NCBI GenBank assembly: GCA_034669905.1
Contig: JAXMOL010000078.1
Span: forward strand, 1-20,540
From: Candidatus Hydrogenedentota bacterium
GTDB taxonomy: Bacteria > Hydrogenedentota > Hydrogenedentia > Hydrogenedentales > JAEUWI01
Direction: 5' to 3'
DNA: 20,540 bases
Every line of letters begins with the position of its first letter. Positions within the stretch are counted from its first letter, which is position 1. This document shows, piece after piece, positions 2,148 through 20,037 of this stretch. The notes under the pieces are model-generated. The model was not told the origin of the DNA. It made no database searches and worked only from the letters and a program-made list of their open reading frames with translations. The position numbers were made by a program, and so were the translations under genes.

Positions 2148-4820
2148 ATGAACACCCGCGCGCAGCGATTTACAGCTTGGCTACTGGTGCTCCTGGCGGG
2201 CGTCGGGGGCGCCGACATGGCCGTTGCCCAGCGTCTGCTGGTCGTCAGTGAAGCGCGCAATCTGGTGGGGGAGGGGACCCGTCTCCAGCTGCAGAGCGTT
2301 GATCTGGGCCTGGAATCGGTCCAACCCGGTCCCCTCACCCTTGCGGGTACCCAGCTGAGCGCTAGCCCCCTCCGCGATCGGCAGGATCAGGGGCTACTCG
2401 TGGGCACCGGCGGACCCTGGCTTGGTGGGGCAGGTTCCCAGCATCCGCCCCAATCGACGTTGGCCGGTTTCCGTGCAGCCCCTTTCGCGCCCTGGCCTGG
2501 TGCCGCGCCCCTTTCCCGGTTAGCGGGCTGGGAATGGCCCGTCGAGGTGGCGGAGGATCAGCGCACCCTCAGCAATGTGCTCGTCAGCGCACGGGTGGTG
2601 GGGGAAGACGGTGGGACCGCCTCCGGGGCAATCGTCACCCGACCCTGGCCGCCGGAAGGCCTGGAAGGGCGGGTGCAGGCCACCGGTGGGCTCCATTCCC
2701 TGCCGGTCGCGCCCCGCTATGTGCTGCCCGTTGCCACCATGAAGTATGTCGTCGTGGGGGAGGCCTCCCGTGACCGTGTCGTCTCCTTGCTGGCGGTTGA
2801 TCTGGACCGCGGCGTGGTCGATACCCCGGTGCCCTTCTTGCAGGAAGCCCACGAAACCGATGGGGCCGCATTGCGCGGCGCGGTGGCCGACCCGGGGCGG
2901 GGCGTACTCTGGCTCCTCTTTTCGGCCCTGACCCTGGATGAGGCCGGGGTGACGCCCACCTCGTGGCTCTATGCCATCGATACTGTGACGCTCCAGGCCC
3001 AGGGAGAACCGGTGACGTTCCGGGGGGTCGGAGCGGTGGACCCGAACCCCCTGCGTCTCGATGCACGGGGCCATTGCTGGATAGGAACCCGGGAACCGGG
3101 CACAGACTTTGGCCGCATTGTAAAGGTAAGCCCTCCGGACATGGATACATCGCCAGAGATTGCCGGGCAGTGGTCTCGCGTGGGTATCAACGAATCGATT
3201 CGGATCGTTCCCGACCCCTCAGGGGAAGGCGTGTTGGTGGCCGAAGACGGACGGCTGAGCTATTGGCCTGATGGGGTATCTGGAGCGGGGGCATACGCCT
3301 TCTCCGCGGCCGTGATGGCCGTGCAATGGGTAGATGGGGGTGCCGTGGTGGCCGAAGGGAACCGGGTGCACCGGATTTCCCTGCCCGAGTGTGCGCCCGA
3401 AGTGACCGTGTCCCTCCAATCGGGGTGGGCGGTAGACCTGGTGGTCGTGCCCGCCGAAGCCCTCCCCGCGCCGGATAGTGATGGCGACGGGGTCATCGAT
3501 GCCGAAGAGCGGCGGCGACAGACCGAGCCCGACAATCCGGATACGGACGGCGATGGCACGCCCGACGGCCGCGATCCCCATCCCAAGGCGCCGTCACCCC
3601 GACTCGAAGTGCCCACGGAAATCGTGTTTCCCTATGTAACTGTTGGCCGACAACTGCGGGCTCTGCCGATTCAGAGCCACAACGATCCCGATGCCCGCTG
3701 GCAAATCGACTTTGATCAGGCGGCCCTGCCCTGGCTGCAGGTCCATCCCCGGGCATTTCGAGGCTCAGGCTACGCCTACATGGGGGTCGACCCCGAGCGC
3801 TTTGACCCCGACGGGGTCGTTTCCGGCCCGGTTACCATCACCCTGACCGGGAAGCGCAAAGGGAACCGCCCCGGTTATCAGGCAGCGGGCAGCCCGGCTA
3901 CGGTTCAGGTGCGGGTAGCCCCGCCACGGGATCCCCTGCCCACCATCCTCTGGTGTTGGCCGGAATCTCAGCAAGACAGGGGAGGTGACCCGGATCTCAC
4001 AACCCTGCGCCGCCAACTGGCCAACGCGCCCTACTACTTTTCCCATGTGAACCGCTTTGGCCCCGTGTCGGAGTCCCTGGCCCCCTATTCCATTATCATC
4101 CTTGGGGCGGCGGCCGCCGCCGAAGGCACCCTGACCCAGAAGGCCCTCCTGGACTATCTCAACGAGGGCGGCGCCGTCCTTTTTCTGGGGGCCCACCTGG
4201 AAGGGGAACACTACCGGGACCTGTCCGCCTGGTTTCGCCCTCTCGATATCGGGGTGGATATGGAGACCGTGGTTGATTCCCGCTTCCGGGCCACGCCGCC
4301 CGAGGGTATCCTGCGGCACTGGCTGAACTTTTCCCTGAAAGAGGGCTGCCTCTTCATCGACCGGCGTCTCGCCACCGATACGGTGCGTATTGCCTATGAC
4401 GCGCCCGAGCAGGTGGTCTTTGAGGCCCGCCCCCATGGTTATGGGCGGATTGTGCTCATGGCCTCCGCATCTCCCCTGTCCAATTCGGCCCTGGTCGCCG
4501 CGCCGAACCGGAGCTTTTCCCTGGACCTGTTTTACTGGCTCAGTCGTGCGGGCTATGCGGTGAACGACCGGGATGGGGATGGGATTCCCGATGCGGTGGA
4601 AGACCGGAACGGCAATGGTGTGGTGGATGGGGCCAACCAGCCAACCGGCGAAACCAGCTTGCTTGATCGGGACTCCGATGATGATGGGATTCCCGATGGA
4701 CAGGAGGATGTGAACCGCAATGGCGTGGTGGATGGGGGCGAAACAAACCCCCGGCTGTGGGACACAGATGGCGACGGGGTGGCGGATGGGGCCGATGGGA
4801 ATCCGCTGGGGAGCGGATAA
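2148..4820 (+). CDS. Secreted multi-domain protein (890 aa): uncharacterised beta-rich N-terminal region, DxDGDG Ca-binding (TSP3-like) repeats, BACON-like Ig domain, DUF4350/GldG-like alpha/beta domain, C-terminal Ca-binding repeats
   Basis: Signal peptide MNTRAQRFTAWLLVLLAGVGGADMAVA. DSDGDG...DTDGDG at ~3474-3590. LPWLQVHP...GSPATVQVRV at ~3600-3920. LLDYLNEGGAVLFLG...GYGRIVL...LFYWLS at ~3930-4555. DRDGDGIPDAVEDRNGNGVVD..GET-type units at 4566-4817. Confidence 0.8.
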   Translation: MNTRAQRFTAWLLVLLAGVGGADMAVAQRLLVVSEARNLVGEGTRLQLQSVDLGLESVQPGPLTLAGTQLSASPLRDRQDQGLLVGTGGPWLGGAGSQHPPQSTLAGFRAAPFAPWPGAAPLSRLAGWEWPVEVAEDQRTLSNVLVSARVVGEDGGTASGAIVTRPWPPEGLEGRVQATGGLHSLPVAPRYVLPVATMKYVVVGEASRDRVVSLLAVDLDRGVVDTPVPFLQEAHETDGAALRGAVADPGRGVLWLLFSALTLDEAGVTPTSWLYAIDTVTLQAQGEPVTFRGVGAVDPNPLRLDARGHCWIGTREPGTDFGRIVKVSPPDMDTSPEIAGQWSRVGINESIRIVPDPSGEGVLVAEDGRLSYWPDGVSGAGAYAFSAAVMAVQWVDGGAVVAEGNRVHRISLPECAPEVTVSLQSGWAVDLVVVPAEALPAPDSDGDGVIDAEERRRQTEPDNPDTDGDGTPDGRDPHPKAPSPRLEVPTEIVFPYVTVGRQLRALPIQSHNDPDARWQIDFDQAALPWLQVHPRAFRGSGYAYMGVDPERFDPDGVVSGPVTITLTGKRKGNRPGYQAAGSPATVQVRVAPPRDPLPTILWCWPESQQDRGGDPDLTTLRRQLANAPYYFSHVNRFGPVSESLAPYSIIILGAAAAAEGTLTQKALLDYLNEGGAVLFLGAHLEGEHYRDLSAWFRPLDIGVDMETVVDSRFRATPPEGILRHWLNFSLKEGCLFIDRRLATDTVRIAYDAPEQVVFEARPHGYGRIVLMASASPLSNSALVAAPNRSFSLDLFYWLSRAGYAVNDRDGDGIPDAVEDRNGNGVVDGANQPTGETSLLDRDSDDDGIPDGQEDVNRNGVVDGGETNPRLWDTDGDGVADGADGNPLGSG

Positions 4821-4821
4821 C

Positions 4822-4850
4822 TTGGTTTCACCCGGGAATCATGCTATAAG
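4822..4850 (+). promoter_or_regulatory. Possible promoter for the HD-GYP gene
   Basis: TTGGTT (4822-4827), 17 nt, TATAAG (4845-4850) with an extended -10 TG at 4842-4843. Confidence 0.35.
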
Positions 4851-4912
4851 ACTAGAGGAATCCAACGTGGTCGGATTTCGGGAAACCCACATTGGGCGGG
4901 AGTTTGGACAAC

Positions 4913-6670
4913 ATGAGAAAAGAACGGTTGATCGTATTGGGTGGGCCCCTTCAGGGGAAGTCGTTTGACATAGACAAATCGCTGTCAATCGGCAGAAACC
5001 CCGAAAACGATCTGCAGTTGGAAGATCTCCAGATTTCCCGTCAACACGCCGTCATTGAACAGGGGGAGCATGCCACCCTTGTGCGCGACCTCGGCAGTGG
5101 CAACGGCACCTTCGTGGATGAGCGCCGCATTCTCGAGTACAAGCTTTCCGATGGCGATGTCATTCAAATGGGTACCCAGTCCCTCCGTTTCGTGGTCGAT
5201 AGTATCGGTGCGGGGGATGAGCAGGCCGCCGCCCAGGCAGAAGTGGACAAGGGCAGCGGAGGCGTACATTTTGATGATGGGCCCGGGGGCCACGTGGAGG
5301 CCGAAAAGGCTTCCAACGTTTTCGAGACCTTCTTCCAGGCACCGAGCCAGGCGGGAAAGAGTGCCGAGCTCAATGAATTGCAGCAACGGCTCCGGGCGGT
5401 CTACAACGCCAATCAGATCATCACCAGTGAGCGCGATCTCAATAAGCTCTTTGAGCGGGTGATGGAAGAGATCTTTCAGCTCATCCCCGCCCACAACGGG
5501 GCGATCCTGCTGCACGACCCGGAAACCGACAAGTTGGGTATCGAGTATTTCCGTCCCGGGGAAGAGGGGCAGGAAATTACCATCAGCACCTCCATCGTCA
5601 ACCAGGCCTATGAAAATGGCGAGGCTATCCTCACCTTCAACGCCTCCGACGATTCCCGCTTTGAAGCCGGGGCCAGTATTATCGCCCAGAACATCGCCTC
5701 CGCCATGTGCGCGCCCCTCACCTACCAGGATGAGCGGCTCGGCGTGGTCTATGTGGATACCCGTGGTACCACGAACGCCTTTGTTAACGGGGACTTAGAG
5801 CTGTTGGTCGCCCTGGCGGGCCCCGCCGGGGTTGCCATTAAGAACGCCCAGTACGTCCGGCAACTCGAGCGGGCCTATCAAGACACCCTCATCGTCCTCG
5901 CCAATGCCATCGAACTGCGGGACCACTACACCGTGGGCCACACCTGGCGCGTCACCAATTTCACCATCGAAGTGGCTAAAGAACTCGGTTGGGACGAAGA
6001 AAAGCTCAAAGAAGTCCGCATGGGCGGTGTGCTCCATGATGTGGGCAAGATCGCCGTGGACGATGCCATTCTCCGAAAGCCCGACCGGCTGACGGAAGAA
6101 GAGTTTGATAAGATCAAGGTTCACCCCGAGAAGGGCGCCCAGCTCCTGGCCGACGTGGACTTTCTCGAGCCCCTCATTCCCTATTGCCTCTATCACCACG
6201 AGCGCTACGACGGGAAGGGCTATCCCCATGGCTTAAAAGGGGAGGATATCCCCATCGAGGGACGCGCCGTCGCGGTGGGCGACACCTTCGACGCCATCAC
6301 CAGCAACCGGCCCTATCGCAAGGGCCTGGACCCCGAAAAGGCCATCCAGATTATTGAAGAGGGAAAAGGTACCCAATTCGACCCCGAATGTGCCGACGCC
6401 CTCATCCGCTGTTACCGCAACGGCAAGATCGATCGTATCCTTCAGGACTACCACAAGAGCTCCGAGCGGAGCATCGCCTGCCCCTTCTGCAGCACCTTCA
6501 TCCAGCTCGACGAGAGTACCTTTGAAGGGGCCGAAGTCTCCTGCGAGGTATGCCACCGCGCGGTCCAGGTCATGCGCAAGAACGAGGCCTGGTTCGGCGA
6601 ACTCGTCCCGGAAGCCAAACGGACCAGCAGCGTCCGCCTGGATAACCTGGACGAAGGCGACCGCGGCTAA
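4913..6670 (+). CDS. FHA + GAF + HD-GYP cyclic dinucleotide phosphodiesterase with C-terminal CxxC-x17-CxxC zinc ribbon (585 aa)
   Basis: FHA: IGRNPEND..ISRQHA..DLGSGNGTFV. GAF: SAMCAPL..RLGVVYVD..F...DLELL. HD-GYP: DHYTVGH..RV, LHDVGKI, HPEKGA, HHERYDGKGYP, DTFDAITSNRPYRK. CPFC...CEVC at 6479-6553. ATG 4913 preferred to TTG 4892 because GGGAG lies upstream. Confidence 0.93.
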   Translation: MRKERLIVLGGPLQGKSFDIDKSLSIGRNPENDLQLEDLQISRQHAVIEQGEHATLVRDLGSGNGTFVDERRILEYKLSDGDVIQMGTQSLRFVVDSIGAGDEQAAAQAEVDKGSGGVHFDDGPGGHVEAEKASNVFETFFQAPSQAGKSAELNELQQRLRAVYNANQIITSERDLNKLFERVMEEIFQLIPAHNGAILLHDPETDKLGIEYFRPGEEGQEITISTSIVNQAYENGEAILTFNASDDSRFEAGASIIAQNIASAMCAPLTYQDERLGVVYVDTRGTTNAFVNGDLELLVALAGPAGVAIKNAQYVRQLERAYQDTLIVLANAIELRDHYTVGHTWRVTNFTIEVAKELGWDEEKLKEVRMGGVLHDVGKIAVDDAILRKPDRLTEEEFDKIKVHPEKGAQLLADVDFLEPLIPYCLYHHERYDGKGYPHGLKGEDIPIEGRAVAVGDTFDAITSNRPYRKGLDPEKAIQIIEEGKGTQFDPECADALIRCYRNGKIDRILQDYHKSSERSIACPFCSTFIQLDESTFEGAEVSCEVCHRAVQVMRKNEAWFGELVPEAKRTSSVRLDNLDEGDRG

Positions 6671-6851: not shown

Positions 6852-6989
6852 TGACCCGTTGAATCGCCTCTTGGGGGCGATTCGTGTTATCCCCGCTGGA
6901 CGTCAACGTAGCCCGAAATCCGCAACATGGGGTTTGGTGGGCACGTACCTGGTTTACACGTAGTAAGAACGATTAAAAGGAGTACTATT

Positions 6990-9900
6990 TTGGGAGCCTT
7001 TGCACGGTTGTCTTCGGTGGGATGCATGGGGCTTGCCATGCTGATGGGGCTGTCGGTCTATGCCGGTCCAACCCTGAATGCTGCGGATTTGGTCGTGGTC
7101 GGCCGAAACACCGACCTGGACGATGAGTTTGGGTTGGTTGCCCTCGCCGATATTCCGGGGGGTTCCGTCGTTTTCCTTACCGATGAAGGGTGGGACGACA
7201 ACGATTTCACCTTTGATGGTTCCGAGGACGTCTTCCAATGGACCGTACCGGTCGCCGGCATTTCGGCCGGCACGCTGATTTTCTTCACCAACGAATCCAC
7301 CACGACGCTGGAGTTGCAGAGTGCGAGTCACGGCACCCTGAGCCACCCCAATGGCAGCAACGATATGAACTTGTCGGCCGGTGATCAGCTTTTTATCTAC
7401 CAGACGGCAAACGATACCTACAATGGTACGATTCAGCGCAAAGATGGCTCCGGCGGGGCGGAGGCCGGGATGATTTACGCCTTTAACGGAGACAATACCA
7501 GTCCCAGCACCAACGGGTGGCTCAACGCGGGCAACACCCACAGTTCCTCCGCGAGCCAGGCGCCGGACAATATGACGGTGCTGTCGACGTCCGACGGCAC
7601 GGGCAATGCCAATGTAGCCAACGCCAATGGCATGCTGACCCAGGCGGATGTGCTGCAGGTATCGGATGTCATGGGTCCGAGCTCCCGTATGGTGACGGAC
7701 GAGTACGACAACTATGCCTACAATGGTCCGACGACGCAGACCGATAAGGCCGGCTGGCTGATTCGTCTGCACACGACCGCCAATTGGATGGCCACCGATG
7801 TCGACATATTCGATATTGGTGACGTGAACTACACGCCCATTGCGACACCCGCGTTGCAGGCGGATTTCATGGTCACCCCCCCCAACGTCGACCCCGTCAT
7901 CACCCAGGGCGCAGGCCCGCTGGCCGTGACCATGAGCGAAGATGGATCGCCCACGGCCTTTGTGGCCCCCACCCTGGGTGCGACAGACGGAGATGGCGAC
8001 ACGCTGACGTGGTCGGTCTCCTCCGCCGCCAGCAACGGCACGGCTACCGTGAGTGGTACGGGCGCAACTCCGAGCACGTTCACCTATGTGCCCACCGCAA
8101 ACTACGTCGGCATGGACAGCTTCACGATTGAGGTTTCCGATGGCAACACGGGCACCGATACCATTGCGGTCAATGTGACGGTGGAGGCCGTAAACGATGC
8201 GCCCGTCATCCTCGGCGACCACGGCTTCGCGGGCAAGTGGGGTTCCAACGGCTCGGGCAATGGCCAGTTCAGCATGAACCAAACGGCCTACATCGCGCTC
8301 GATGCGTCGGGCAATGTCTATGTGGCGGATTTCCTTAATGACCGTATTCAGAAATTTGATGCCGACGGTAATTATATCGCCCAATTTGGTGGCAACGGCA
8401 CGGGCGATGGTCAGTTTCGGCGGATAACGGGTATTGCCATCGATTCCAGCGGCAACATATACGCCTCGGACCGGAATGCCCACCGCATTCAAAAGTTTAA
8501 TTCCAGTGGTGCGTTCTTGTTGGCGTGGGGTTCCCAGGGTAATGGCAACGGTCAGTTTGAAAGCCCCGAAGGGATCGGGGTGGACTCATCCAACAATATC
8601 TATGTTGCGGACCGCAACAACCATCGCGTGCAAAAGTTCGATTCCAGCGGCAATTTCATTGCGGTCTGGGGCGGAACGGCCTCCAGTAGTGCCGACGGCC
8701 AGTTCGATACTCCCTACGGCGTGGCTGTGGATGCCGCGGACAACGTCTATGTGAGCGAAGAAGGCAATGACCGTATTCAAGTCTTGAATGCCAGTGGCGT
8801 ATTCCAACGGAAGTGGGGCAGCAACGGGTCGGGCGACGGACAGTTCAACGCGGCCCGCAGCGTAACCGTAGGCACCGATGGTCGGATCTATGTTACCGAC
8901 CACAACTTGCATCGCGTCCAATCCTTTACCTCCGACGGCGTCTTCGTCGAAAAATGGGGTGCCAGCGGCTCGGCCGACGGCGCGTTCAATCGTCCCTCGG
9001 GTATCGTCCAGTCGGCTGCGGGCAGGGTATATGTCGTGGATCAATTCAACAGCCGCGTTCAGTATTTCGAACGCACCGCCGCCAGTAGCACGGTCGCCGT
9101 TGCGATGGACGAAGACAGCAGCCCGACATCCTTCGTGCTCACACTCTTCGCAAGTGATGAAGAGGCCGACACGCTTACCTGGAGTATCTCCAGCGCCGCC
9201 AGCCACGGCACGGCCACGACGTCTGGAACGGGCACCGCCAAAGATATCGCCTACGCGCCCTCGACAGACTACAATGGCGCAGATAGTTTTGACGTGCAGG
9301 TGAGTGATGGCAATGGCGGCACCGACACGATAACGGTCAATGTCACCATCAGCGCCCAGGCCGACGCCCCGGTCATCACGCAGGGCGCAGGGCCGCTGGC
9401 CGTCACCATGAGCGAAGACGGATCGCCTACGGCTTTTGCGGCCCCCACCCTCGGCGCGACGGATGGAGATGGCGACACGCTGACGTGGTCGGTATCTTCC
9501 GCTGCCAGCCACGGCACGGCGACGGTAAGCGGAACGGGGGCGGCTCCGAGCACGTTCACCTATGTACCCACCACCAACTACGTCGGCATGGACAGCTTCA
9601 CGGTCCAGGTTTCTGATGGCAATATGGGCACCGACACCATTACGGTGGATGTTATTATCGAAGCGCAGAACGATGCCCCTGTCATCACGCAGGGCGCAGG
9701 CCCGCTGACCGTCACGATGGATGAAGACGGCACGCCCACCGCCTTTGTGGCACCCACAGTCGACGCGAGTGATGTGGAAATGGACACCCTCACGTGGTCC
9801 GTTTCCTCGGAAGCGTCGAATGGCACAGCGACGGTCAGTGGTACGGGCGCGGCACCTTCGACCTTCACCTATGTGCCGGAAGCGGACTACAACGGCATGG

Positions 9901-12900
9901 ATCGTTTCACCGTTCAAGTCTCCGATGGCAATGGCGGTGCCGATACCATTGAGGTCGACGTTACGGTGAACGCCGTCAACGATGCGCCCGTATTCACAAG
10001 TTCCTATAGCTCTGTCGGCACCTGGGGCGAGGAGGGAAGTGGGGCTGGCCAGTTAGTCCTGCCAACCTACCTGGACCTCGATAGTGCCGGGAATGTGTAT
10101 GTGGCCGATTCCGATAACGATCGGATCCAGGTCTTCGACGCCGACGGCACCTTCCTCCGGGAGTGGGGTACCGAGGGGAGTGGCGACGGACAATTCGAGA
10201 ATCCGTCTGGGGTCGCCGTCGATAGCAGTGACAACGTTTACGTGGCCGACTTTGATTCCAATCGGATTCAGAAGTTCGATTCCAATGGAAACTTTCTGCT
10301 GGCATGGGGCGCGGCGGGCACGGGTAATGGAGAATTTGATGCGCCCTACGGTGTTGCCGCAGACGGAGATGGGAACATCTACGTCTCCGATTCGGAGAAC
10401 CACCGTATCCAGAAATTCGATTCCAACGGCAATTTCCTCCTGGTTTGGGGAACGTCCGGTACCGGCAACGGAGAATTTAATCTTCCCTTCGGTATCGCCA
10501 CGGACGGAGACGACAACGTATACGTCACCGATTCGAGTAACAGCCGGGTGCAAGTCTTTGATGCGGGCGGAACCTTCCTTCGTACGTGGGGGAGCGCCGG
10601 CGAAGAGGAAGGACAGTTTTCAGGGATCATCGGCATCGATGTGGCTCCCGACGGCACCGTCTACACCACCGAACTCCAGCAAGGGCGCGTACAGGCGTTC
10701 CGGCCCGACGGCACGTTCCTCGCTGCCTGGGGAGAGTTCGGAACCGAGGTGGGGCAATTGGCTTCCCCGGTCGATATTGTCGTTGCACCTTCCGGTCGCG
10801 TCTATGTGGCGGAGGCCTACGCCTTCCGCGTGCAGTACTTCGAAAGCGAAGTGCTAGGGGCGACGCTGGCGGTGACGCTGGATGAAGACGGCGCGCCCAC
10901 ACCCTTTGCGCTGCAATTGATAGCCACCGACGCCGAAGGCGACACCATAACCTGGAGCATATCCAGCCCGGCCGCCCATGGTGTGGCCACCGTCTCGGGC
11001 ACCGGAACGTCTAAGTCCATCGCCTATGTGCCCACGGCAAATTATCACGGCACCGACAGCTTCGACGTGCAGGTTGACGACGGAAACGGCGGCACCGATA
11101 CGGTGACCATAAACGTGACCATCGATCCAGTAAACGACGTCCCGGTTATTACCCAGGGCGACGGTCCACTTGCCGTTACCATGTCGGAAGATGGAAGTCC
11201 GACGGACTTTGTCGCCCCCACATTGGGCGCGACCGATATCGACAGCGGAGACACGCTGACCTGGTCCGTTTCTTCGGCTGCCAGCAACGGTACGGCTACG
11301 GTGAGCGGTGATGGCGCTTCGCCCGGCACCTTCATCTATGTGCCGTACGTGGATTACAACGGCTCGGACAGCTTCACGGTGCAGGTATCCGACACGAACG
11401 GTGGTACGGACACCATCGTCGTGAACGTCACCGTTGCTGCGGTAAACGATGCCCCGGTGATCACCCAGGGCGCCGGGCCGTTGGCGGTGACCATGGATGA
11501 GGACGGCAGCCCCGTGGCCTTCACGGCACCGATCCTCGGCGGGACGGATGTGGACGGCGATACCCTGACATGGTCGGTTTCTTCGGCCGCGAGCCATGGC
11601 ACCGCCACGGTCAGTGGCACGGGTGCGGCCCCGGCAACCTTCACCTATGTGCCCGATGCGGAGTACAGTGGCTCGGACAGCTTCACGGTGCAGGTATCCG
11701 ACGGAAAGGGCGGTACGGACACCATCGTCATGGACGTCACCGTCGGTGCAGTAAACGATGCCCCGGTGATTACCCAAGGGGATGATCCGTTAACGGTGAC
11801 CATGGATGAGGATGGGGTGCCCTCGGCGTTCGTGGCCCCCGCCCTGAGCGCTACGGATGCCGAAGATGATGTCCTTACGTGGTCGCTGGTCACGCCCCCC
11901 AGCCATGGCACGGCAACGGTGAGTGGAACCGGCACCGCGCCCGCAACCCTTCACTATGCGCCAATCGCTCACTTCAACGGTATGGACAGCTTTACGGTAC
12001 AAGTGGATGATGGCAACGCGGGTGTCGATACCATCGCCATCAACGTTACGGTTGCCCTGCAAAATGACGCGCCCGTACTGGAAACGAAGTATGGATATGT
12101 CGGTGCTTTCGGTAGCTATGGATCGGCTTCGGGCGAATTCATCAACCCGACCTTCATGGCGACGGACAGCGCCCGGAACCTGTATGTAGCCGATACGGGT
12201 AACCAGCGGATTCAGAAATTCGATGCCGATGGAAACTTTCTACTGGCGTGGGGAGGCCAGGGGACCTCGGATGGACAATTCGAGCGTCCTTTCGGTATGG
12301 GCATCGATTCCACCGACGCCGTATTCGTGGCGGATTTTACGCGCAAAGATGTGCAGAAATTCGACGCCGACGGCAATTTCCTCATGAAATGGGAGGTGCC
12401 TTTGCCAGATAACGCAGCACCTACGGGACTCGCGGTCGGACCCGGCGATGTGATTTACGTGGCCGACAGCGGGAATAACCGCGTTCATAAGTTTGACGCC
12501 GACGGGAATTACCTCCTGTATTTCGGAGGCTTTGGCAGTGCAGAGGGTGAAATGGCCAATCCGTATGGGGTGGCTGTCGATTCCTCGGGGTACGTCTATG
12601 TGACCGAAATTAGCAATGAACGTGTGCAGGTCTTCTCCGAATCCGGTGTGTTCATCCGCTCCCTGGAGACCCCGGGGCCGGGTGCGGAACCCTTGCTGGC
12701 TCCCTTGGGCGTCGCGATCGGGCAAGATGGGACGCTGTTCTTTGCGGAGAGTGGCGAGGCACCCCGGGCCGCCCGCTTCTTGAGTGATGGTACCCTTTTC
12801 GAGCGAATCGGTGCCGACCCGGCGGACCCGGTCCTGATTGGGCATCCCAATGGGGTGACACTCAGTAGCGACAATCGACTCTACGTTGCAGACAGTACGA

Positions 12901-14162
12901 CGAATGGCATTGTGTATTACGAACAGCAAGCCTTCGACGAGACCCTTGCTGTTTCCATGGATGAAGATGGCATGACCGAGCCGTTTGCCCTAACCCTGCA
13001 GGCGCTGGATAAGGATGGCGATACGTTGACCTGGTCCATTTCGGTGCCGTCCAGCATCGGCGTCGCAGCGGTGAGCGGTACGGGATTCTCGAAGGCAATT
13101 GCCTACACGCCACCGGCGGATTTCCACGGCACCGACAGTTTCGAGGTGCACGTGACCGACGGAAACGGCGGAACCGACTCGGTCAGGGTGGCGGTGACTG
13201 TCGTGCCGCAGGACGATGCGCCGGTTATCGCCGTGCTGGAGACCCTGACCCTCGAGGAAGGCAATAGCGCCCTGCTCGATACCGCCGTTCTATCCACAAC
13301 GGACGTGGATACGGCGGATACCAGACTCGTATATAGCATCGAAGTGCCGCCGCTCCGCGGACGCCTGATACAGGTGCCGAATCCGGGCGTGGCCTTCACG
13401 CAGTTTACCCAGGATGATCTGGTTCGTAGCCTCCTCGCGTACGTCCACGACGGGGGTGAGTCTACGGCCGACAGTTTCACGTTTAGCGTGTCGGATGGCA
13501 CCACGACCGAAGTTCGTGCCTTCAACATAGCCGTGGAACCGGTAAACGATCCGCCCGTCTTGGATGCGATTGGCGCGCAGGTCATACAAGAAGGGGAAAC
13601 GCTCTCGTTTGCCCTTTCTGCCACGGACCCCGAGGAAGATGCCCTTGGCTTCGAGGTGACAGGACTGCCATCCGGTGCTACCTTCGATGCCGTGATGGGT
13701 ACCTTTGTGTGGATGCCAGGCATGGGCGACGCGGGGACCTATGAACTGACCTTCACGGTTACGGACCGTGGCGTTCCAGCGGAGCAGGATAGCGAAATCG
13801 TAACCATTACCGTTGTTGCCATGGCGGGTGAAGGCGAAGGTGAAGGCGAAGGTGAAGGCGAAGGTGAAGGCGAAGGTGAAGGTGAAGGCGAAGGTGAAGG
13901 TGAAGGTGAAGGTGAAGGTGAAGGTGAAGGTGAAGGTGAAGGTGAAGGCGAGGGCGAGGGCGAGGGCGAGGGCGAGGGTGAGGGTGAGGGCGAGGGCGAG
14001 GGCGAAGGCGAAGGCGAAGGCGAGGGTGAGGGTGAGGGTGAAGGATGCCCCTTCTTAATGCGAAAGGGTTTTGTCGAATTTGCGACGGAACAAATGGCCG
14101 ATCTTCTACTGATTGGCGTCTCGTTGCTCAGCATGCTGTGTTGGCGTACGGTGCCCCGGTAG
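6990..14162 (+). CDS. Large secreted surface protein, adhesin-like (~2390 aa): N-terminal extracellular domain, 9 cadherin-like/Big_9 Ig repeats, three 6-bladed NHL propellers, cadherin-like (CSPG-type) and putative-Ig domains, (GE)36 linker, C-terminal membrane tail
   Basis: NDAPVI...DSFTVQVSDGNGGTDT repeats of ~103 aa. 18 NHL repeats (F.xP.G.AVD..GNVYVAD..N.RIQKFD). Start placed at in-frame TTG 6990, 7 nt after AAGGAG (6977-6982), giving a 25-aa signal peptide ending in VYA. The ORF track starts at ATG 6927. Confidence 0.9.
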   Translation: MGAFARLSSVGCMGLAMLMGLSVYAGPTLNAADLVVVGRNTDLDDEFGLVALADIPGGSVVFLTDEGWDDNDFTFDGSEDVFQWTVPVAGISAGTLIFFTNESTTTLELQSASHGTLSHPNGSNDMNLSAGDQLFIYQTANDTYNGTIQRKDGSGGAEAGMIYAFNGDNTSPSTNGWLNAGNTHSSSASQAPDNMTVLSTSDGTGNANVANANGMLTQADVLQVSDVMGPSSRMVTDEYDNYAYNGPTTQTDKAGWLIRLHTTANWMATDVDIFDIGDVNYTPIATPALQADFMVTPPNVDPVITQGAGPLAVTMSEDGSPTAFVAPTLGATDGDGDTLTWSVSSAASNGTATVSGTGATPSTFTYVPTANYVGMDSFTIEVSDGNTGTDTIAVNVTVEAVNDAPVILGDHGFAGKWGSNGSGNGQFSMNQTAYIALDASGNVYVADFLNDRIQKFDADGNYIAQFGGNGTGDGQFRRITGIAIDSSGNIYASDRNAHRIQKFNSSGAFLLAWGSQGNGNGQFESPEGIGVDSSNNIYVADRNNHRVQKFDSSGNFIAVWGGTASSSADGQFDTPYGVAVDAADNVYVSEEGNDRIQVLNASGVFQRKWGSNGSGDGQFNAARSVTVGTDGRIYVTDHNLHRVQSFTSDGVFVEKWGASGSADGAFNRPSGIVQSAAGRVYVVDQFNSRVQYFERTAASSTVAVAMDEDSSPTSFVLTLFASDEEADTLTWSISSAASHGTATTSGTGTAKDIAYAPSTDYNGADSFDVQVSDGNGGTDTITVNVTISAQADAPVITQGAGPLAVTMSEDGSPTAFAAPTLGATDGDGDTLTWSVSSAASHGTATVSGTGAAPSTFTYVPTTNYVGMDSFTVQVSDGNMGTDTITVDVIIEAQNDAPVITQGAGPLTVTMDEDGTPTAFVAPTVDASDVEMDTLTWSVSSEASNGTATVSGTGAAPSTFTYVPEADYNGMDRFTVQVSDGNGGADTIEVDVTVNAVNDAPVFTSSYSSVGTWGEEGSGAGQLVLPTYLDLDSAGNVYVADSDNDRIQVFDADGTFLREWGTEGSGDGQFENPSGVAVDSSDNVYVADFDSNRIQKFDSNGNFLLAWGAAGTGNGEFDAPYGVAADGDGNIYVSDSENHRIQKFDSNGNFLLVWGTSGTGNGEFNLPFGIATDGDDNVYVTDSSNSRVQVFDAGGTFLRTWGSAGEEEGQFSGIIGIDVAPDGTVYTTELQQGRVQAFRPDGTFLAAWGEFGTEVGQLASPVDIVVAPSGRVYVAEAYAFRVQYFESEVLGATLAVTLDEDGAPTPFALQLIATDAEGDTITWSISSPAAHGVATVSGTGTSKSIAYVPTANYHGTDSFDVQVDDGNGGTDTVTINVTIDPVNDVPVITQGDGPLAVTMSEDGSPTDFVAPTLGATDIDSGDTLTWSVSSAASNGTATVSGDGASPGTFIYVPYVDYNGSDSFTVQVSDTNGGTDTIVVNVTVAAVNDAPVITQGAGPLAVTMDEDGSPVAFTAPILGGTDVDGDTLTWSVSSAASHGTATVSGTGAAPATFTYVPDAEYSGSDSFTVQVSDGKGGTDTIVMDVTVGAVNDAPVITQGDDPLTVTMDEDGVPSAFVAPALSATDAEDDVLTWSLVTPPSHGTATVSGTGTAPATLHYAPIAHFNGMDSFTVQVDDGNAGVDTIAINVTVALQNDAPVLETKYGYVGAFGSYGSASGEFINPTFMATDSARNLYVADTGNQRIQKFDADGNFLLAWGGQGTSDGQFERPFGMGIDSTDAVFVADFTRKDVQKFDADGNFLMKWEVPLPDNAAPTGLAVGPGDVIYVADSGNNRVHKFDADGNYLLYFGGFGSAEGEMANPYGVAVDSSGYVYVTEISNERVQVFSESGVFIRSLETPGPGAEPLLAPLGVAIGQDGTLFFAESGEAPRAARFLSDGTLFERIGADPADPVLIGHPNGVTLSSDNRLYVADSTTNGIVYYEQQAFDETLAVSMDEDGMTEPFALTLQALDKDGDTLTWSISVPSSIGVAAVSGTGFSKAIAYTPPADFHGTDSFEVHVTDGNGGTDSVRVAVTVVPQDDAPVIAVLETLTLEEGNSALLDTAVLSTTDVDTADTRLVYSIEVPPLRGRLIQVPNPGVAFTQFTQDDLVRSLLAYVHDGGESTADSFTFSVSDGTTTEVRAFNIAVEPVNDPPVLDAIGAQVIQEGETLSFALSATDPEEDALGFEVTGLPSGATFDAVMGTFVWMPGMGDAGTYELTFTVTDRGVPAEQDSEIVTITVVAMAGEGEGEGEGEGEGEGEGEGEGEGEGEGEGEGEGEGEGEGEGEGEGEGEGEGEGEGEGEGEGEGEGEGEGEGEGCPFLMRKGFVEFATEQMADLLLIGVSLLSMLCWRTVPR
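13827..14042 (+). repeat. Coding hexanucleotide tandem repeat GGYGAR x36, encoding (Gly-Glu)36
   Basis: 216 nt of GGTGAA/GGCGAA/GGCGAG/GGTGAG units, in frame. Confidence 0.98.
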
Positions 14163-14288
14163 CCGCACGCCACGGGGTCCCGTCTCCTCGATTGTGGTAC
14201 AGTTCCAGAGAGAAAACCGCCGGGCCGCCGCGTTATCTCAGGGAAGGTAGCAACGCCCGCCCGCGGGCTACCCATCGGAACTGCACCC

Positions 14289-15563
14289 ATGACAACCGTG
14301 TATAAACCACTGGCCCTGCTTGTCTTGTGTATCGTCGCCCCCGCTGTTGCGACTGAGCTCAATGAGGCACCGTCCCCCTTGCCCGCGGGAATCCCCCAGG
14401 TGCAAAAGGGCGCCGGGGCCACCGGACTGTCCGTGGACACCCTCGACCGAAACGCGGTCCGCGCCTTCTACAACGACGTGTATTTGCCCGGGGAAAGCGT
14501 GGAACCCGGCTGGACCGGGAGCACGGGTTCCTGCACGCCGGGCACCACCACGAACGCCTATCTCACGGCCACGGCCACGCGCATCAATTTCTACCGGGCC
14601 ATGGCCGGCCTTCCTGCTAACATCCAACTCGACCCCGCCCTCAATGCCCAATGCCAGGAGGCCGCCCTCATGATGTCGGCCGAAAACCGCCTGAGTCACT
14701 CCCCACCAGCGACGTGGGCCTGTTACGCGTCGGACGGTGCGCTGGCGGCCGCGCGCTCCAACCTTTCCCTGGGGAATGCGGGCCCCCAATCGATTGATGC
14801 CTACATGGAAGATCGCGGTGCGGGCAATCGGGCGGCCGGTCATCGCCGATGGATACTCGACCCCGGGCAAACCATCATGGGCTCGGGCTCGGTGAGCGGG
14901 AATGGGGCCCGGGCGGCCAATGCCCTCTGGGTTATCAATGGGGGCAGTGACAGCGGCGTCTCCCAACCCGCCTCGTGGCCCTCCATGGGCTTCTTCCCCA
15001 AGCCCCTGATTATCGCGCGCTGGTCCTACTCGCACCCCCAGGCCGATTTCTCCGGCGCGACCGTGCGTATGTTTGAAGATGGGGAAGAGAAAACGCTGGT
15101 GCAGAACCCCATCAGCAATGGCTTTGGCGACAACACCCTCGTCTGGGAGCCCCAGATTGGCCTTCCCCCACCCGGTGCGGATGTGACCTACCGCATCGAG
15201 ATTTCCGGCATGCGCATTGGCGGCGTGGTCCAGCCGGTCGCCTACGACGTGTTTGCCACCGACATAACGGGCAGCACGTCCGGTGAAGGTGAAGGTGAAG
15301 GTGAAGGTGAAGGTGAAGGTGAAGGTGAAGGCGAAGGCGAAGGCGAAGGCGAAGGCGAAGGCGAAGGCGAAGGCGAAGGCGAAGGCGAAGGCGAAGGCGA
15401 AGGCGAAGGCGAGGGTGGAGGTGGAGATGAAGGCACGACGACGGTAGGCTGCGTACAGTCCAAACTTGCCGACGTCGGCATCCGCCTCAGCGAGCTCTTC
15501 GGCGATCTGGTGCTATTCCTCCTGGCAACCCTAACCTTATATACCTACCCCCAACTACACTAG
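14289..15563 (+). CDS. Secreted CAP (SCP/PR-1) domain protein with a beta-rich domain, (GE)22 linker and C-terminal membrane tail (424 aa)
   Basis: Signal peptide [24 protein letters not shown] motifs [45 protein letters not shown]. Confidence 0.9.
15282..15413 (+). repeat. Coding hexanucleotide tandem repeat encoding (Gly-Glu)22
   Basis: (GGTGAA)8(GGCGAA)13(GGCGAG)1, 132 nt, in frame. Confidence 0.98.
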
Positions 15564-15629: not shown

Positions 15630-17651
15630 GTGAAGTTCCTATTGCACCACCTCTGTTTACTGGCCCTTCTTTGTGGCCCTATCCCTGCCTTCGCGGCAGA
15701 CGCCCATACCTACGACGTGGTCGTCTACGGTGGCACAGCCGGTGGGGCCATTGCCGCCATCGCGGCGGCGGAAGAAGGCCAACGGGTCGCGCTCATCGAG
15801 GTGCGCAATCATATTGGCGGCATGACCTCGGGCGGTTTGGGCCGCACCGATTTCGGCGATATGTCGGTCATCGGAGGCCGTTCCCTGGAGTTTTATAAAC
15901 GCCTGGGCAAACACTACGGCGAAGATGTCTCCTGGTACTTTGAACCCCACCAGGCGGAAAAGCATCTCCGCGAATGGCTGGCGGAAGCCAACGTGGACCT
16001 CTTTTTCGGAAGCCGCCTGAAATCGCTGACGAAAGAGGGCACCCGGATTACGTCCATCACCCTTCTCAACGAGTCGACGTTCACGGCGCCCATGTTTATC
16101 GACTGCTCTTATGAGGGTGACCTCCTCCCCCATGCCAAGATCACCTACACCTGGGGACGGGAAGGACAGGACGTCTATGGCGAATCGCTGGCCGGTAAGA
16201 TTGATTATAGCGACAAGCACCAGTTTGACGTGCCCGTAAACCCCTATGACGAAAAGGGTAAACTCCTGCCCCTCATCATGGCCGATGACGGACTGAAACC
16301 CGGCGCAGGCGACCGGAAAATCCAGGCCTATAATTTCCGCATGTGCCTTTCGAGTGATAAGGACAATCAGATCCCCTTTCCCAAGCCGAAAAATTACGAC
16401 CCCAAGCGCTGGGAAATACTCCGCCGCTATTTGCAGCAGCGTCCCGACCTGACGATCAACGAAATCTTAATCGTATCCCTCATGCCCAACAACAAGACGG
16501 ACATCAACAACCGGGGCCCCATCTCGACGGATTTCATCGGCGGCAGCTGGGACTATCCCGAGGCGAGCTACGAAGAGCAGGAGCGCATCTGGCAGGAACA
16601 CATCGATTACACCCAGGGCTTTTTCTATTTTCTGGCCAACGATCCGGGCGTACCTGATACGCTCCAGCAGGAAATCAACGGATGGGGCCTGGCGAAAGAT
16701 GAATTCGTGGACACGGAACACTGGCCCAACCAGCTCTATGTGCGCGAAGCCCGGCGTATGATCGGCAGCTATGTCACCATCCAGAAAGACCTTCAGGACG
16801 ATCGCCGCAAGGAAGACAGCATCGGCATGGCCTCCTACAATTCGGACTCCCACCACGTGCAGCGCTTTGTGGTAGACGAATCACCCCTCTGGGAGAAAGG
16901 CACGCCTTCTCTCCTCAATGAAGGCGACATGCAGGTCCCGGTAAAGGCCTATGACATGTCCTACTTCTCCTTTGTGCCCAAGACGGAAGAATGCACCAAC
17001 CTCCTGGTGGGCAGCACCTTCTCGGCATCCCACGTGGCCTATTCGAGCATGCGCATGGAGCCCCAGTACATGATCATCGGGGAAGCCATCGGCACGGCGG
17101 CGGCCATGGCGATTGCGGGCGAGACCTCGGTGCAGGCCATCGATGTGAAGGTTCTGCAACGTAAGCTCTACGAACGGGGCGCCATTCTCCACCGGGAAGA
17201 CACGAAACCGCCCTTCGCCTGGGCCCGTGATTTGCCGGGCATCGCCCTGGATAACGACAATGTGACCGTGGTCGGCGACTGGCATAGTTCCCGTAATGTG
17301 GGACCCTACGTGGGGTATGAATACCTCCACGTGAGCGACGAAGACGCAAAAGACTGTCGGGTTCGTTATACGCCCACCCTCCCCAAGGCCGGGTGGTATG
17401 AAGTGCGTATCTCCTACTCTTCCCACCCCAACCGGGCCAAGCGGGCGCGGATCGTCATTCAGACGGCGACGGGCACCGAAACGGTCTTTGTGGATCAGAG
17501 TAAAAAGCAGGGGGAATTCAGTCCCTTTGTCTCCCTCGGCACCTTCGCCTTGAAAGAAGGCACGGACAGCTATGTAGAAATTCAGGCGACCGAAGACGCG
17601 GGTGGCTATGTGGTCGCCGATGCGGTGCAGTGGTTGCCGGTGGAGCAGTGA
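15630..17651 (+). CDS. Secreted FAD-dependent oxidoreductase (FAD_oxidored-like family) with C-terminal xanthan-lyase/golvesin-like beta-sandwich, paralog 1 (673 aa)
   Basis: Signal peptide. YDVVVYGGTAGGAIAAIAAA, IGGMTSGGLG, FIDCSYEGDL, QAYNFRMCL, QLYVREARRM, SASHVAYSSMRMEPQYM. C-terminal PTLPKAGWYEVRISY...GYVVADAVQW. GTG start with AGGAG RBS. Confidence 0.9.
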   Translation: MKFLLHHLCLLALLCGPIPAFAADAHTYDVVVYGGTAGGAIAAIAAAEEGQRVALIEVRNHIGGMTSGGLGRTDFGDMSVIGGRSLEFYKRLGKHYGEDVSWYFEPHQAEKHLREWLAEANVDLFFGSRLKSLTKEGTRITSITLLNESTFTAPMFIDCSYEGDLLPHAKITYTWGREGQDVYGESLAGKIDYSDKHQFDVPVNPYDEKGKLLPLIMADDGLKPGAGDRKIQAYNFRMCLSSDKDNQIPFPKPKNYDPKRWEILRRYLQQRPDLTINEILIVSLMPNNKTDINNRGPISTDFIGGSWDYPEASYEEQERIWQEHIDYTQGFFYFLANDPGVPDTLQQEINGWGLAKDEFVDTEHWPNQLYVREARRMIGSYVTIQKDLQDDRRKEDSIGMASYNSDSHHVQRFVVDESPLWEKGTPSLLNEGDMQVPVKAYDMSYFSFVPKTEECTNLLVGSTFSASHVAYSSMRMEPQYMIIGEAIGTAAAMAIAGETSVQAIDVKVLQRKLYERGAILHREDTKPPFAWARDLPGIALDNDNVTVVGDWHSSRNVGPYVGYEYLHVSDEDAKDCRVRYTPTLPKAGWYEVRISYSSHPNRAKRARIVIQTATGTETVFVDQSKKQGEFSPFVSLGTFALKEGTDSYVEIQATEDAGGYVVADAVQWLPVEQ

Positions 17652-18012: not shown

Positions 18013-20037
18013 ATGAAAAAACTATCCTTCTTGATTGTTACCCTTCTCACCGCACTGGGACTGGTTACGCCGACCTATGCCCAGGAGACACCCCGCGCGT
18101 ACGACGTGGTGGTCTATGGTGCCACGGCGGGTGGCGCGGTAGCCGCCATCGCCGCGGCCAACGAAGGGCTGAACGTGGCCCTCATCGAACCCCGACAGCA
18201 CGTAGGCGGCATGACCTCGGGCGGCCTGGGGGCCACCGACTTTGGCCGCAAGTACGTCATTGGGGGCCTGTCACTGGAATTCTATAAGCGGCTCACGAAA
18301 TATTACGGCGGGGACGTGGCCTGGCATTTCGAACCCCACAAGGCCGAAAAGGAGCTCCGCGACTGGCTGAAGGAAGCCGGCGTGGATCTTTACTTCGGCA
18401 GTCGCCTTGGCTCGGTACACAAAGAAGGCACAACTATTCTGTCCATTACCCTGCTGAATGACATGACCTTCACAGCCCCCATCTTCATCGACTGCTCCTA
18501 CGAAGGCGATATCCTGCCCCTGGCCGACATCTCCTATACCTGGGGCCGGGAAGGACGGGACGCCTATGGGGAAAGCCTCGCGGGCTACATGGAGTACAGC
18601 CCCAAACACCAGTTTTCGGTTCCGGTAAACCCCTACGATGAGGAGGGCAACCTCTTGCCTCTCGTGCAGGAACGGGAACCCACCCTGCCGGGCGAGGCCG
18701 ATCGTAAGGTGCAGGCCTATAACTTCCGTCTGTGCATGACCCAGGACAAGAACAACCAGGTGCCCTGGCCCAAGCCGGAGAACTATGATCCGGCGGACTG
18801 GGAACTACTCCGTCGCTATGTGGCCGCCAAGCCTGACCTGACTTTTGAGCAGCTCTGTCACCCCTTCCGCCTTCCCAAGGGCAAGACCGACACGAACAAC
18901 AACGGCGCCATCTCCACGGATTTTATTGGCGGCAGCTGGGACTATCCGGATAGCACCTATGCCGAGCAGGAACGCATCTGGCAGGCGCATGAAGATTATG
19001 TAAAAGGATTTTTCTACACCCTGGCCAACGACCCGGCCCTGCCCGAAGCCCTTCGTGAAGAAGCCCAGAGCTGGGGGCTGGCGAAAGATGAATTTGTCGA
19101 CACGGGCCACTGGCCCCACCAGTTGTACGTGCGGGAAGCCCGGCGCATGATCGGCAGCTACGTCACGATACAGAAGGACCTTCAGACAGACCGACACAAA
19201 GAAGACAGCATCGGCATGGGGTCCTACAACTCCGACTCCCACAACGTGCAGCGCTTCGCCGTGACGGAGTCTCCCCTCTGGGACGCCGGCACGCCTTCGG
19301 TCATCAATGAGGGCGACATGCAGGTGGGCGTTCAGCCCTATGACATGTCCTACCGCTCCTTCATCCCCCAGGCCTCGGAATGCACCAACCTCTTTGTGGG
19401 CAGCACTTTTTCGGCATCCCACGTGGCCTATTCGAGCATGCGGATGGAGCCCCAGTACATGATTATCGGCCACGCCGCCGGGGTGGCCGCCGCGTTGGCC
19501 ATCGAAAACAAGCAGGCCGTTCAAGAAGTGGATATCACCGCCCTGCAGACGAAGCTCAAGGAGCAGGGCGCCATCCTCCACATCGAAGACACCATCTCGG
19601 ATTTTATTTCTATCAAGAAACTTCCCGGCTTTGTCATGGACACGGACACGGCGGAAGTGGTGGGCAAGTGGCTCCCTTCGGGCGACATGCAACCCTATGT
19701 GGGCTACAACTACCTCCACGATGGGCAGGCGAAGGACCCGGCCAACTACATCCGCTATCGGATGGCCTTGCCGAAAGCCGGTCGCTATGAAGTGCGGGTC
19801 TCATATTCCGCGCACCACAACCGCGCCACCAACGCCCTCTACGTGGTACACCACGCCGACGGCACCGCCGAACACCGGGTCAACCAGCGTAAGAAACCGG
19901 GTCCCCTGGCGCCCTTTATCTCGCTGGGCGTTTATTCCTTTGAGCGCGGCGATGGCGGCTACATCGACGTCGTCAGTACGAAAGATTCCGGTGGCTATCT
20001 CATTGCCGATACGGTGCAGTTGTTGCCGGTAGAATAA
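18013..20037 (+). CDS. Secreted FAD-dependent oxidoreductase, paralog 2 (674 aa)
   Basis: Collinear with 15630-17651 with the same motifs (YDVVVYGATAGG, FIDCSYEGD, QLYVREARRMIGSYVTIQKDLQ, SASHVAYSSMRMEPQYMIIG, YLIADTVQLLPVE). Signal peptide MKKLSFLIVTLLTALGLVTPTYA. AAGGA upstream. Confidence 0.9.
   Translation: MKKLSFLIVTLLTALGLVTPTYAQETPRAYDVVVYGATAGGAVAAIAAANEGLNVALIEPRQHVGGMTSGGLGATDFGRKYVIGGLSLEFYKRLTKYYGGDVAWHFEPHKAEKELRDWLKEAGVDLYFGSRLGSVHKEGTTILSITLLNDMTFTAPIFIDCSYEGDILPLADISYTWGREGRDAYGESLAGYMEYSPKHQFSVPVNPYDEEGNLLPLVQEREPTLPGEADRKVQAYNFRLCMTQDKNNQVPWPKPENYDPADWELLRRYVAAKPDLTFEQLCHPFRLPKGKTDTNNNGAISTDFIGGSWDYPDSTYAEQERIWQAHEDYVKGFFYTLANDPALPEALREEAQSWGLAKDEFVDTGHWPHQLYVREARRMIGSYVTIQKDLQTDRHKEDSIGMGSYNSDSHNVQRFAVTESPLWDAGTPSVINEGDMQVGVQPYDMSYRSFIPQASECTNLFVGSTFSASHVAYSSMRMEPQYMIIGHAAGVAAALAIENKQAVQEVDITALQTKLKEQGAILHIEDTISDFISIKKLPGFVMDTDTAEVVGKWLPSGDMQPYVGYNYLHDGQAKDPANYIRYRMALPKAGRYEVRVSYSAHHNRATNALYVVHHADGTAEHRVNQRKKPGPLAPFISLGVYSFERGDGGYIDVVSTKDSGGYLIADTVQLLPVE

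Follow-up and report, generated by a model that had tools for sequence, protein, structure and literature searches.

The two neighbouring genes described here raise the question whether otherwise unrelated exported proteins of a Candidatus Hydrogenedentota bacterium share a C-terminal sorting signal, and which enzymes would act on it. The DNA analysed (the window) comprises 20,540 nucleotides, contig JAXMOL010000078.1 of assembly GCA_034669905.1; it is contig C78 of the genome designated G000 (7.44 Mb, 95.7% complete), and labels of the type G001–G134 stand for relatives in the phylum Hydrogenedentota, 135 genomes being compared in total. The tail in question consists of a Cys, 13–19 residues, the pair [G/S/A]D, a membrane helix and a few K/R. 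It is very probably a surface-sorting signal of 47 otherwise mostly unrelated exported proteins in G000. The novelty would lie in the candidate enzymes: an additional Lgt paralog (LgtB) and a divergent protein with the Rce1 fold (WE-type CPBP).

The tail and its carriers

Both genes and the features within them lie on the forward (+) strand. The first (6927..14162) encodes an exported protein of 2411 amino acids, for which searches of the open reading frame (ORF) yielded Big_9, NHL and cadherin-like (Ig-like/NHL) domains. Its probable signal peptide (6927..7064) was recognized by eye and with a hydrophobicity heuristic, the true start being possibly later; a (GE)36 linker (13827..14045), which is not part of the signal, leads to the tail (14043..14162) with Cys at 14046, Asp at 14100, a helix and two Arg. 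The second gene (14289..15563), identified in the same manner, encodes an exported CAP-domain protein of 424 amino acids with a probable signal peptide (14289..14351, by eye), a (GE)22 linker (15282..15416), also outside the signal, and a tail (15447..15563) with Cys at 15450, Asp at 15504, a helix and no basic residue. A preliminary description of this DNA had reported both ORFs and tails, a Cys-Asp distance of 18 residues in each, and a basic end which was weak in one protein and absent in the other; all of this was confirmed. Likewise, the remaining parts of the two proteins had been regarded as unrelated, and no mutual similarity was found outside the GE run and the tail.

In G000, 75 ORFs contain at least four GE units, and 59 of these are stop-ended. 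A seed model of 37 tails, which were chosen by a Cys-acid-hydrophobic pattern, was iterated over 63,475 stop-ended ORF ends and gave 46 domain matches, all of them terminal; one further tail (E 0.0022) was included by hand. The window tails are beyond chance, since a model from 35 other G000 tails, with the window tails omitted, recovers both among these ends (E 2.4e-6 for the first, 1.6e-5 for the second), no internal match occurred, and the best reversed-sequence decoy for the final model reached only E 0.28.

Alignment of 42 G000 tails showed a Cys-Asp spacing of 13–19, an invariant Cys, partly through the choice of seeds, and Asp in 36 tails. A broad alignment of 104 tails from 16 genomes, with seeds chosen for Cys, contained Cys in 100, Asp in 98 and Gly before Asp in 82; conservation of the Asp before the helix equals that of the Cys. 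The helix is followed by at least two K/R in 33 of the 42 and in 94 of the 104 tails, i.e., a helix with a basic cluster is present, which is weak in G000; the CAP protein has the sole tail without K/R after the helix among the 42. Pairwise identity of the tails is only 11–43%, yet Cys and Asp are kept. An N-terminal hydrophobic stretch was found, by a crude hydrophobicity heuristic, in 36 of 37 5'-complete carriers, compared with 59% of 1767 long ORFs, in agreement with the expected co-occurrence with signal peptides. Most carrier pairs (530/630) are unrelated outside the tail, and 100 have other homology. Several of the properties by which Haft defines a tripartite C-terminal sorting signal were observed: C-terminal place, many copies, signal peptides (by the heuristic) on otherwise mostly unrelated carriers, and a helix with basic residues behind it.

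Two elements of the preliminary description had to be abandoned as parts of the signal. Its fixed spacer (x17) is contradicted by the variable spacing in the aligned tails, and its (GE)n linker is not constant: a GE run is present in 41 of 47 carriers (in 29 not more than 60 residues from the stop) and absent from six, while the tail is lacking in 18 of the 59 stop-ended GE proteins. Between GE run and tail, EF-hand-like repeats (by eye) are often located in several G000 carriers, e.g., C5:46390-51553 and C40:57640-62487. A second type of tail, with GC[FM], a short spacer, a helix and a longer amphipathic-looking extension, is not matched by the model (G000:C24:39954-46760, C26:288-524, C93:9836-10105).

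Distribution and relation to known sorting tails

Of the 135 genomes, 71 were matched by the G000-specific model. After widening with 75 tails from 15 relatives (16 loci examined by script yielded none), the tail was found in 94/135 genomes at E 0.01, most matches being uninspected and at most 55 candidates being scored per genome. Of the 86 good genomes, 66 are tail-positive and 20 tail-negative. Together with the 47 terminal copies in G000, this bears out the earlier notion of a lineage-specific, Cys-containing signal on unrelated exported proteins. Many tails of relatives have no adjoining GE run, and tails of family f3 have CGC-like Cys clusters.

Nine genomes of family f7 are without the tail; in five of them, 14 matches up to E 2 contained no Cys-GD tail, and four of five tested tail-negative f7 genomes were without any (GE)5. 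In a 400-kb sample, the protein-coding DNA common with G000 was 48% for tail-negative G048 and 39–42% for tail-positive G036; since G048 shares as much as G036, its losses represent no general gene purge. Tail-negative genomes are over-counted, since with relaxed thresholds tail-like ends, some of them Cys-less, appeared in three of five f13 genomes scored as "negative".

The tails had been thought to differ from known CTERM models, and the NCBIfam and Pfam searches yielded no fitting tail model. The window tails had no NCBIfam match at E 0.01, and for the 42 G000 tails no NCBIfam or Pfam family was matched by more than one member at E 10. Among the 104 tails, weak matches were obtained to MYXO-CTERM (nine, best E 0.0019) and JDVT-CTERM (seven, best E 0.046). 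With TIGR03901 (MYXO-CTERM, cut-off 20 bits) none of the 47 G000 tails was found at E 1, and the single match above cut-off in five genomes was another ORF. The myxosortase core model NF040914 (cut-off 100 bits) was above cut-off in none of the 135 genomes; the best score, 73.8, came from a genome with one marginal tail, and the best in G000 was 21.2. JDVT-CTERM (NF033191) gave best values of E 0.046–0.17, and the tails have [G/S/A]D at 13–19, not DP at nine residues after the Cys; one DP-type tail was seen in G043. Synerg-CTERM and CGP-CTERM were not among the matching families listed (25 of 28 for the 104 tails); the spacer is at least 12 residues, so the Cys does not abut the helix.

The design is nevertheless close to those of MYXO- and JDVT-CTERM, and the tail is a variant within a kind already known. 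In common with MYXO-CTERM/MrtX are a Cys motif, a helix and a basic end, the presence on dozens of unrelated exported proteins in one genome, and a proposed lipidate-then-cleave route (Haft, 10.1101/2023.06.07.544157; Guo et al., PMC11980579). The present tail differs by the highly conserved Asp at the helix start, the spacer of 13–19 residues, the weak basic end in G000, and the lack of a model match and of a Mrt-core enzyme; a candidate Lgt paralog can be named, whereas the lipidating enzyme for MYXO-CTERM is unknown. As judged from sequence, the tail would work like MYXO-CTERM but fails membership. JDVT-CTERM/MrtJ (NF033191, NF033192) also has a single Cys, followed by Asp at or in a Leu-rich helix, but there one carrier lies beside the protease; here up to 47 carriers exist, no protease adjoins a tail gene in the neighbourhoods inspected for low-copy genomes, and the MrtJ model scores 20–29 of 75 bits. 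A literature search, which covered few subscription journals, yielded no publication on the tail, on a sorting system of the phylum or on an Lgt paralog for CTERM tails.

GlyGly-CTERM (with rhombosortase), PEP-CTERM and CFI-box-CTERM are likewise C-terminal sorting tails, each present in G000 and with different signatures, so that at least four such systems coexist there. A PEP-CTERM-type protein is located at L235:1055-1789 (by eye). At L234:3232-6138 (G000:C54) the rhombosortase (92.5 over 84 bits) adjoins its own target, a VIT/VWA-like protein (by eye) with a GlyGly-type tail, unlike the situation with the present tail.

Candidate enzymes and a possible pathway

In the Lgt/LspA pathway of lipoproteins, a Cys next to a membrane helix is lipidated, and cleavage follows. 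The present tail, with its helix after a C-terminal Cys, resembles such a signal in reverse. LgtB likely lipidates the tail Cys and the WE-type CPBP likely then cuts off the helix; from distribution, gene neighbours and fold, a probability of roughly one half may be assigned to this reading. The carriers possess an N-terminal hydrophobic segment and the Cys-spacer-[G/S/A]D-helix-K/R tail. Sec export would leave the protein held by the helix, with the Cys on the periplasmic face; LgtB would add diacylglycerol to this Cys; the WE-type CPBP would recognize the Asp where the helix begins and cleave behind the lipidated Cys; and the lipid-anchored protein might, if MYXO-CTERM is taken as a guide, be carried to the surface by a secretin system. 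Seven secretin matches above cut-off are present in G000. A lipidate-then-cleave route in general appears somewhat more probable than this specific version; that both enzymes are correctly assigned is rather doubtful.

Haft (10.1101/2023.06.07.544157) and Guo et al. (PMC11980579) connect CPBP enzymes with four Cys tails but name no lipidating enzyme; cleavage by MrtX requires the Cys, and an Lgt-like enzyme was predicted (PMC11980579). For MrtX, co-expression in E. coli has been used. In L392, titled Bdellovibrionota, an Lgt gene lies directly upstream of a WE-type gene, and therefore Lgt was scanned for throughout the phylum. Most genomes hold at least two Lgt matches; G056, G058, G015, G081 and G089 have six to eight. 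LgtB (G000:C14:20766-21599) is a full-length Lgt above curated cut-offs (PF01790, 179 bits; TIGR00544, 127.6 over 118.9) and 29% identical to the other Lgt. It was scored with a three-row profile, the call being made by reading a gap in E values (<=1e-70 versus >=1e-59). In this way LgtB was found in 82/94 tail-positive and 11/41 tail-negative genomes (G026, with a piece only, being counted as lacking), or in 60/66 and 9/20 of the good ones; three of the 11 tail-negative genomes have tail-like ends. It is missing in the f7 negatives and in the f13 genera g47, g52, g53, g59 and g61–g63. Among the genes tested LgtB is the best tracker of the tail, with losses in two families, and the chances that it is the lipidating enzyme of the tail Cys are about even.

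In G000, LgtB is flanked by a cohesin-like/fn3 protein, whose helix-basic tail contains no Cys, and by a CFI-box-CTERM protein; the latter is a GE-repeat protein right behind LgtB (L416:2455-6456, i.e., G000:C14:16454-20455; 86.6 over 40 bits). Among the 30 best LgtB loci, 25 contain a homolog of one cohesin-like/fn3 protein, and at 21 the gene upstream of LgtB ends in a membrane helix, often as GD/AD-helix-RR. In G021 and G022, LgtB and the WE-type gene share a strand and are separated by 2.5 kb, in the order LgtB, PolX/PHP-like, endonuclease III-like, WE-type (middle labels by eye).

The WE-type CPBP (G000:C4:125989-126753) was found by a motif scan as the fifth CPBP of G000, below the Pfam threshold, besides four Pfam CPBPs; PF02517 is weak in 24/24 rows (best E 4.7e-7). 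It occurs in 115/135 genomes, mostly as a single match, in all 66 good tail-positive ones, and in family f7 in the same five of 14 genomes as the tail, being lost with it in nine. The structure model (predicted local distance difference test, 88) has as closest folds SpdC (6u0o; Z 10.7, root mean square deviation 5.0, 196 aligned) and MmRce1 (4cad; Z 10.2, 5.2, 189 aligned), the next being at 6.1. Foldseek also placed Rce1 first, but with E 0.3, and a PDB sequence search with the WE-type profile gave unrelated weak rows only. Compared with these proteins of like fold, identity is 12–14%, and the catalytic motifs EExxxR and HxxxN were not found: WExxxR and HxxxE stand in their place, with an extra motif E-x3-H-x2-K-x3-E. 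The residues R, H, K, E, H and E are invariant in 30 distant homologs, and a search of 1.84 billion representatives yielded 227 relatives at E 0.001. The usual neighbour is an endonuclease III-like gene (22/25 loci, label by eye). As protease of the tail this protein is a plausible candidate with somewhat less than even chances.

Outside the phylum no tails were detected near WE-type genes, a weak test, as the broad models score the known L397 tails only at E 0.8–10. At L397:6096-13288 a WE-type gene is followed 2.1 kb downstream by a tail-bearing protein of 1525 amino acids, and another tail-like end is 5.7 kb upstream. In L384, L389 and L402 (titled Nevskiales, Salinisphaerales) two small genes common to these records precede the WE-type gene, which is the last of a conserved series; this setting has no relation to the tail. 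Many records within L340–L401, titled Nitrospirales or Desulfobacteraceae, have WE-type genes close to those of Hydrogenedentota; the titles may be wrong.

Other proteases were considered and rejected. Canonical myxosortase was absent above cut-off, as stated; CPBP L001 occurs in 13/135 genomes, including tail-negative G037 and G039; CPBP L004 occurs in 61/135 and, with a single query, was not found in tail-rich G015, G031, G040 and G083; CPBP L002 is an ABC-permease fusion (680 of 435 bits); the rhombosortase has its adjacent GlyGly target; and for the CPBP adjoining a tail gene in G082, no match to its family was present in G000. The neighbourhoods of single tails in G050, G057, G091, G106, G107 and G134 contained no common protease.

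The fourth Pfam CPBP of G000 (C9:154195-155088) is a canonical EE-type enzyme of a small-peptide operon. The respective cluster (L077:301-7341; G000:C9:151800-158840), which resembles those for ribosomally synthesized and post-translationally modified peptides, is phylum-wide and was also seen in L062, L063, L064, L069, L071, L075, L245 and L248–L252. Its array contains up to six small ORFs (38–75 amino acids) with an MKH[LI]-type leader ending in AD/AQ and an amphipathic-looking core; four peptides tested had no Pfam match over cut-off. Downstream are GNAT, GNAT, CPBP, ABC ATPase, permease and a degenerate radical-SAM/SPASM-GNAT fusion, whose best ScfB-related model scored 68 of 855 bits.

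Alternatives and significance

Several observations speak against the pathway with LgtB and the WE-type CPBP. SpdC, the top fold match of the latter, is not known to be catalytic. Trp replaces the first Glu of EExxxR in 24/24 rows and the second Glu is absent in two, while MrtX keeps both (PMC11980579). The WE-type CPBP is also present in 15/20 good tail-negative genomes; G132 and G094 have no tail even at E 2, and five outside genomes with homologs gave no tail match better than E 0.21. The nine losses in f7 may be one event, and the CPBP of the peptide operon shows nearly the same loss. LgtB was not found in the good, tail-rich genomes G059 (19 tail matches) and G031 (25), nor in G097, G100 and G130, and G026 has a piece only; the protein adjacent to it often has no Cys close to the helix, and LgtB could serve the CFI-box or the cohesin-like protein instead. 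G021 and G022 represent one genus, and eight other wider LgtB regions are without WE-type CPBP. Finally, conservation of the Cys is partly built in by the seed pattern, and four of the 104 aligned tails have none.

The Cys could be lipidated, likely by LgtB, and the helix remain uncut as a permanent double anchor, with the WE-type protein as a non-catalytic partner or unrelated. This would suit the missing catalytic Glu, the closer tracking of the tail by LgtB than by any CPBP and the lack of myxosortase in 135 genomes; partial surface display of uncleaved MYXO-CTERM proteins has been proposed (PMC11980579). It is nevertheless unlikely: the WE-type CPBP is kept in every good tail-positive genome, its polar pocket residues are invariant, and a conserved Asp where the helix begins suggests that an enzyme within the membrane recognizes it, an argument which Haft made for JDVT-CTERM (10.1101/2023.06.07.544157). 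The protease could also be the peptide-operon CPBP, if it acted on both its peptides and the tails. It has the invariant E-E-x3-R, its best NCBIfam match is MrtJ (weak, 28.7 of 75 bits), and it is present in 119/135 genomes and 66/66 good tail-positive ones and lost in the same nine f7 genomes. However, its gene is part of a conserved GNAT-GNAT-CPBP-ABC-permease-SPASM-like operon that follows an array of leader peptides of its own; the operon is intact in G094, G132 and G001, where no tail was found, the enzyme was not found in tail-positive G043, G009 and G030 (79–92% complete), and it is present in 17/20 good tail-negative genomes, which makes this proposal improbable.

Still less probable is a plain, unprocessed membrane anchor, which recombination at GE-coding repeats would have carried from gene to gene. 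The frequent GE runs of the carriers, the absence of (GE)5 from most tested tail-negative f7 genomes and the weak basic cluster in G000 would be accounted for, but not the retention of Cys and Asp in tails of such low identity, the many tails of relatives without adjoining GE run, or the co-distribution with LgtB. A diverged MYXO- or JDVT-CTERM served by a canonical myxosortase is highly improbable. The same tripartite design, the few weak matches to both families and the Cys clusters in f3 recall it; the NF040914 and TIGR03901 results, GD instead of DP and the many copies per genome argue against it.

Elsewhere in the window, an exported-looking protein of 890 amino acids, which has CglD-like acidic repeats but lacks a Pfam match (2148-6670), is followed by an FHA-GAF-HD protein, and tandem flavin adenine dinucleotide (FAD) oxidoreductases (PF12831) at 15630-17651 and 18013-20037 are exported-looking, each with a Golvesin C-terminal domain.

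An uncatalogued sorting tail would mark the surface proteome of a whole phylum. Candidate LgtB makes testable which enzyme lipidates Cys-CTERM tails, a question left unanswered in 10.1101/2023.06.07.544157 and PMC11980579. A reversed-lipoprotein pathway, in which a dedicated Lgt paralog would diacylglycerylate the C-terminal Cys and the helix would be released by a CPBP that is not related to myxosortases and has a rebuilt active site, is a tentative proposal; if true, a lipidating enzyme would for the first time be named for a Cys-CTERM system, and the Rce1 fold would have been recruited to protein sorting a second time, independently.

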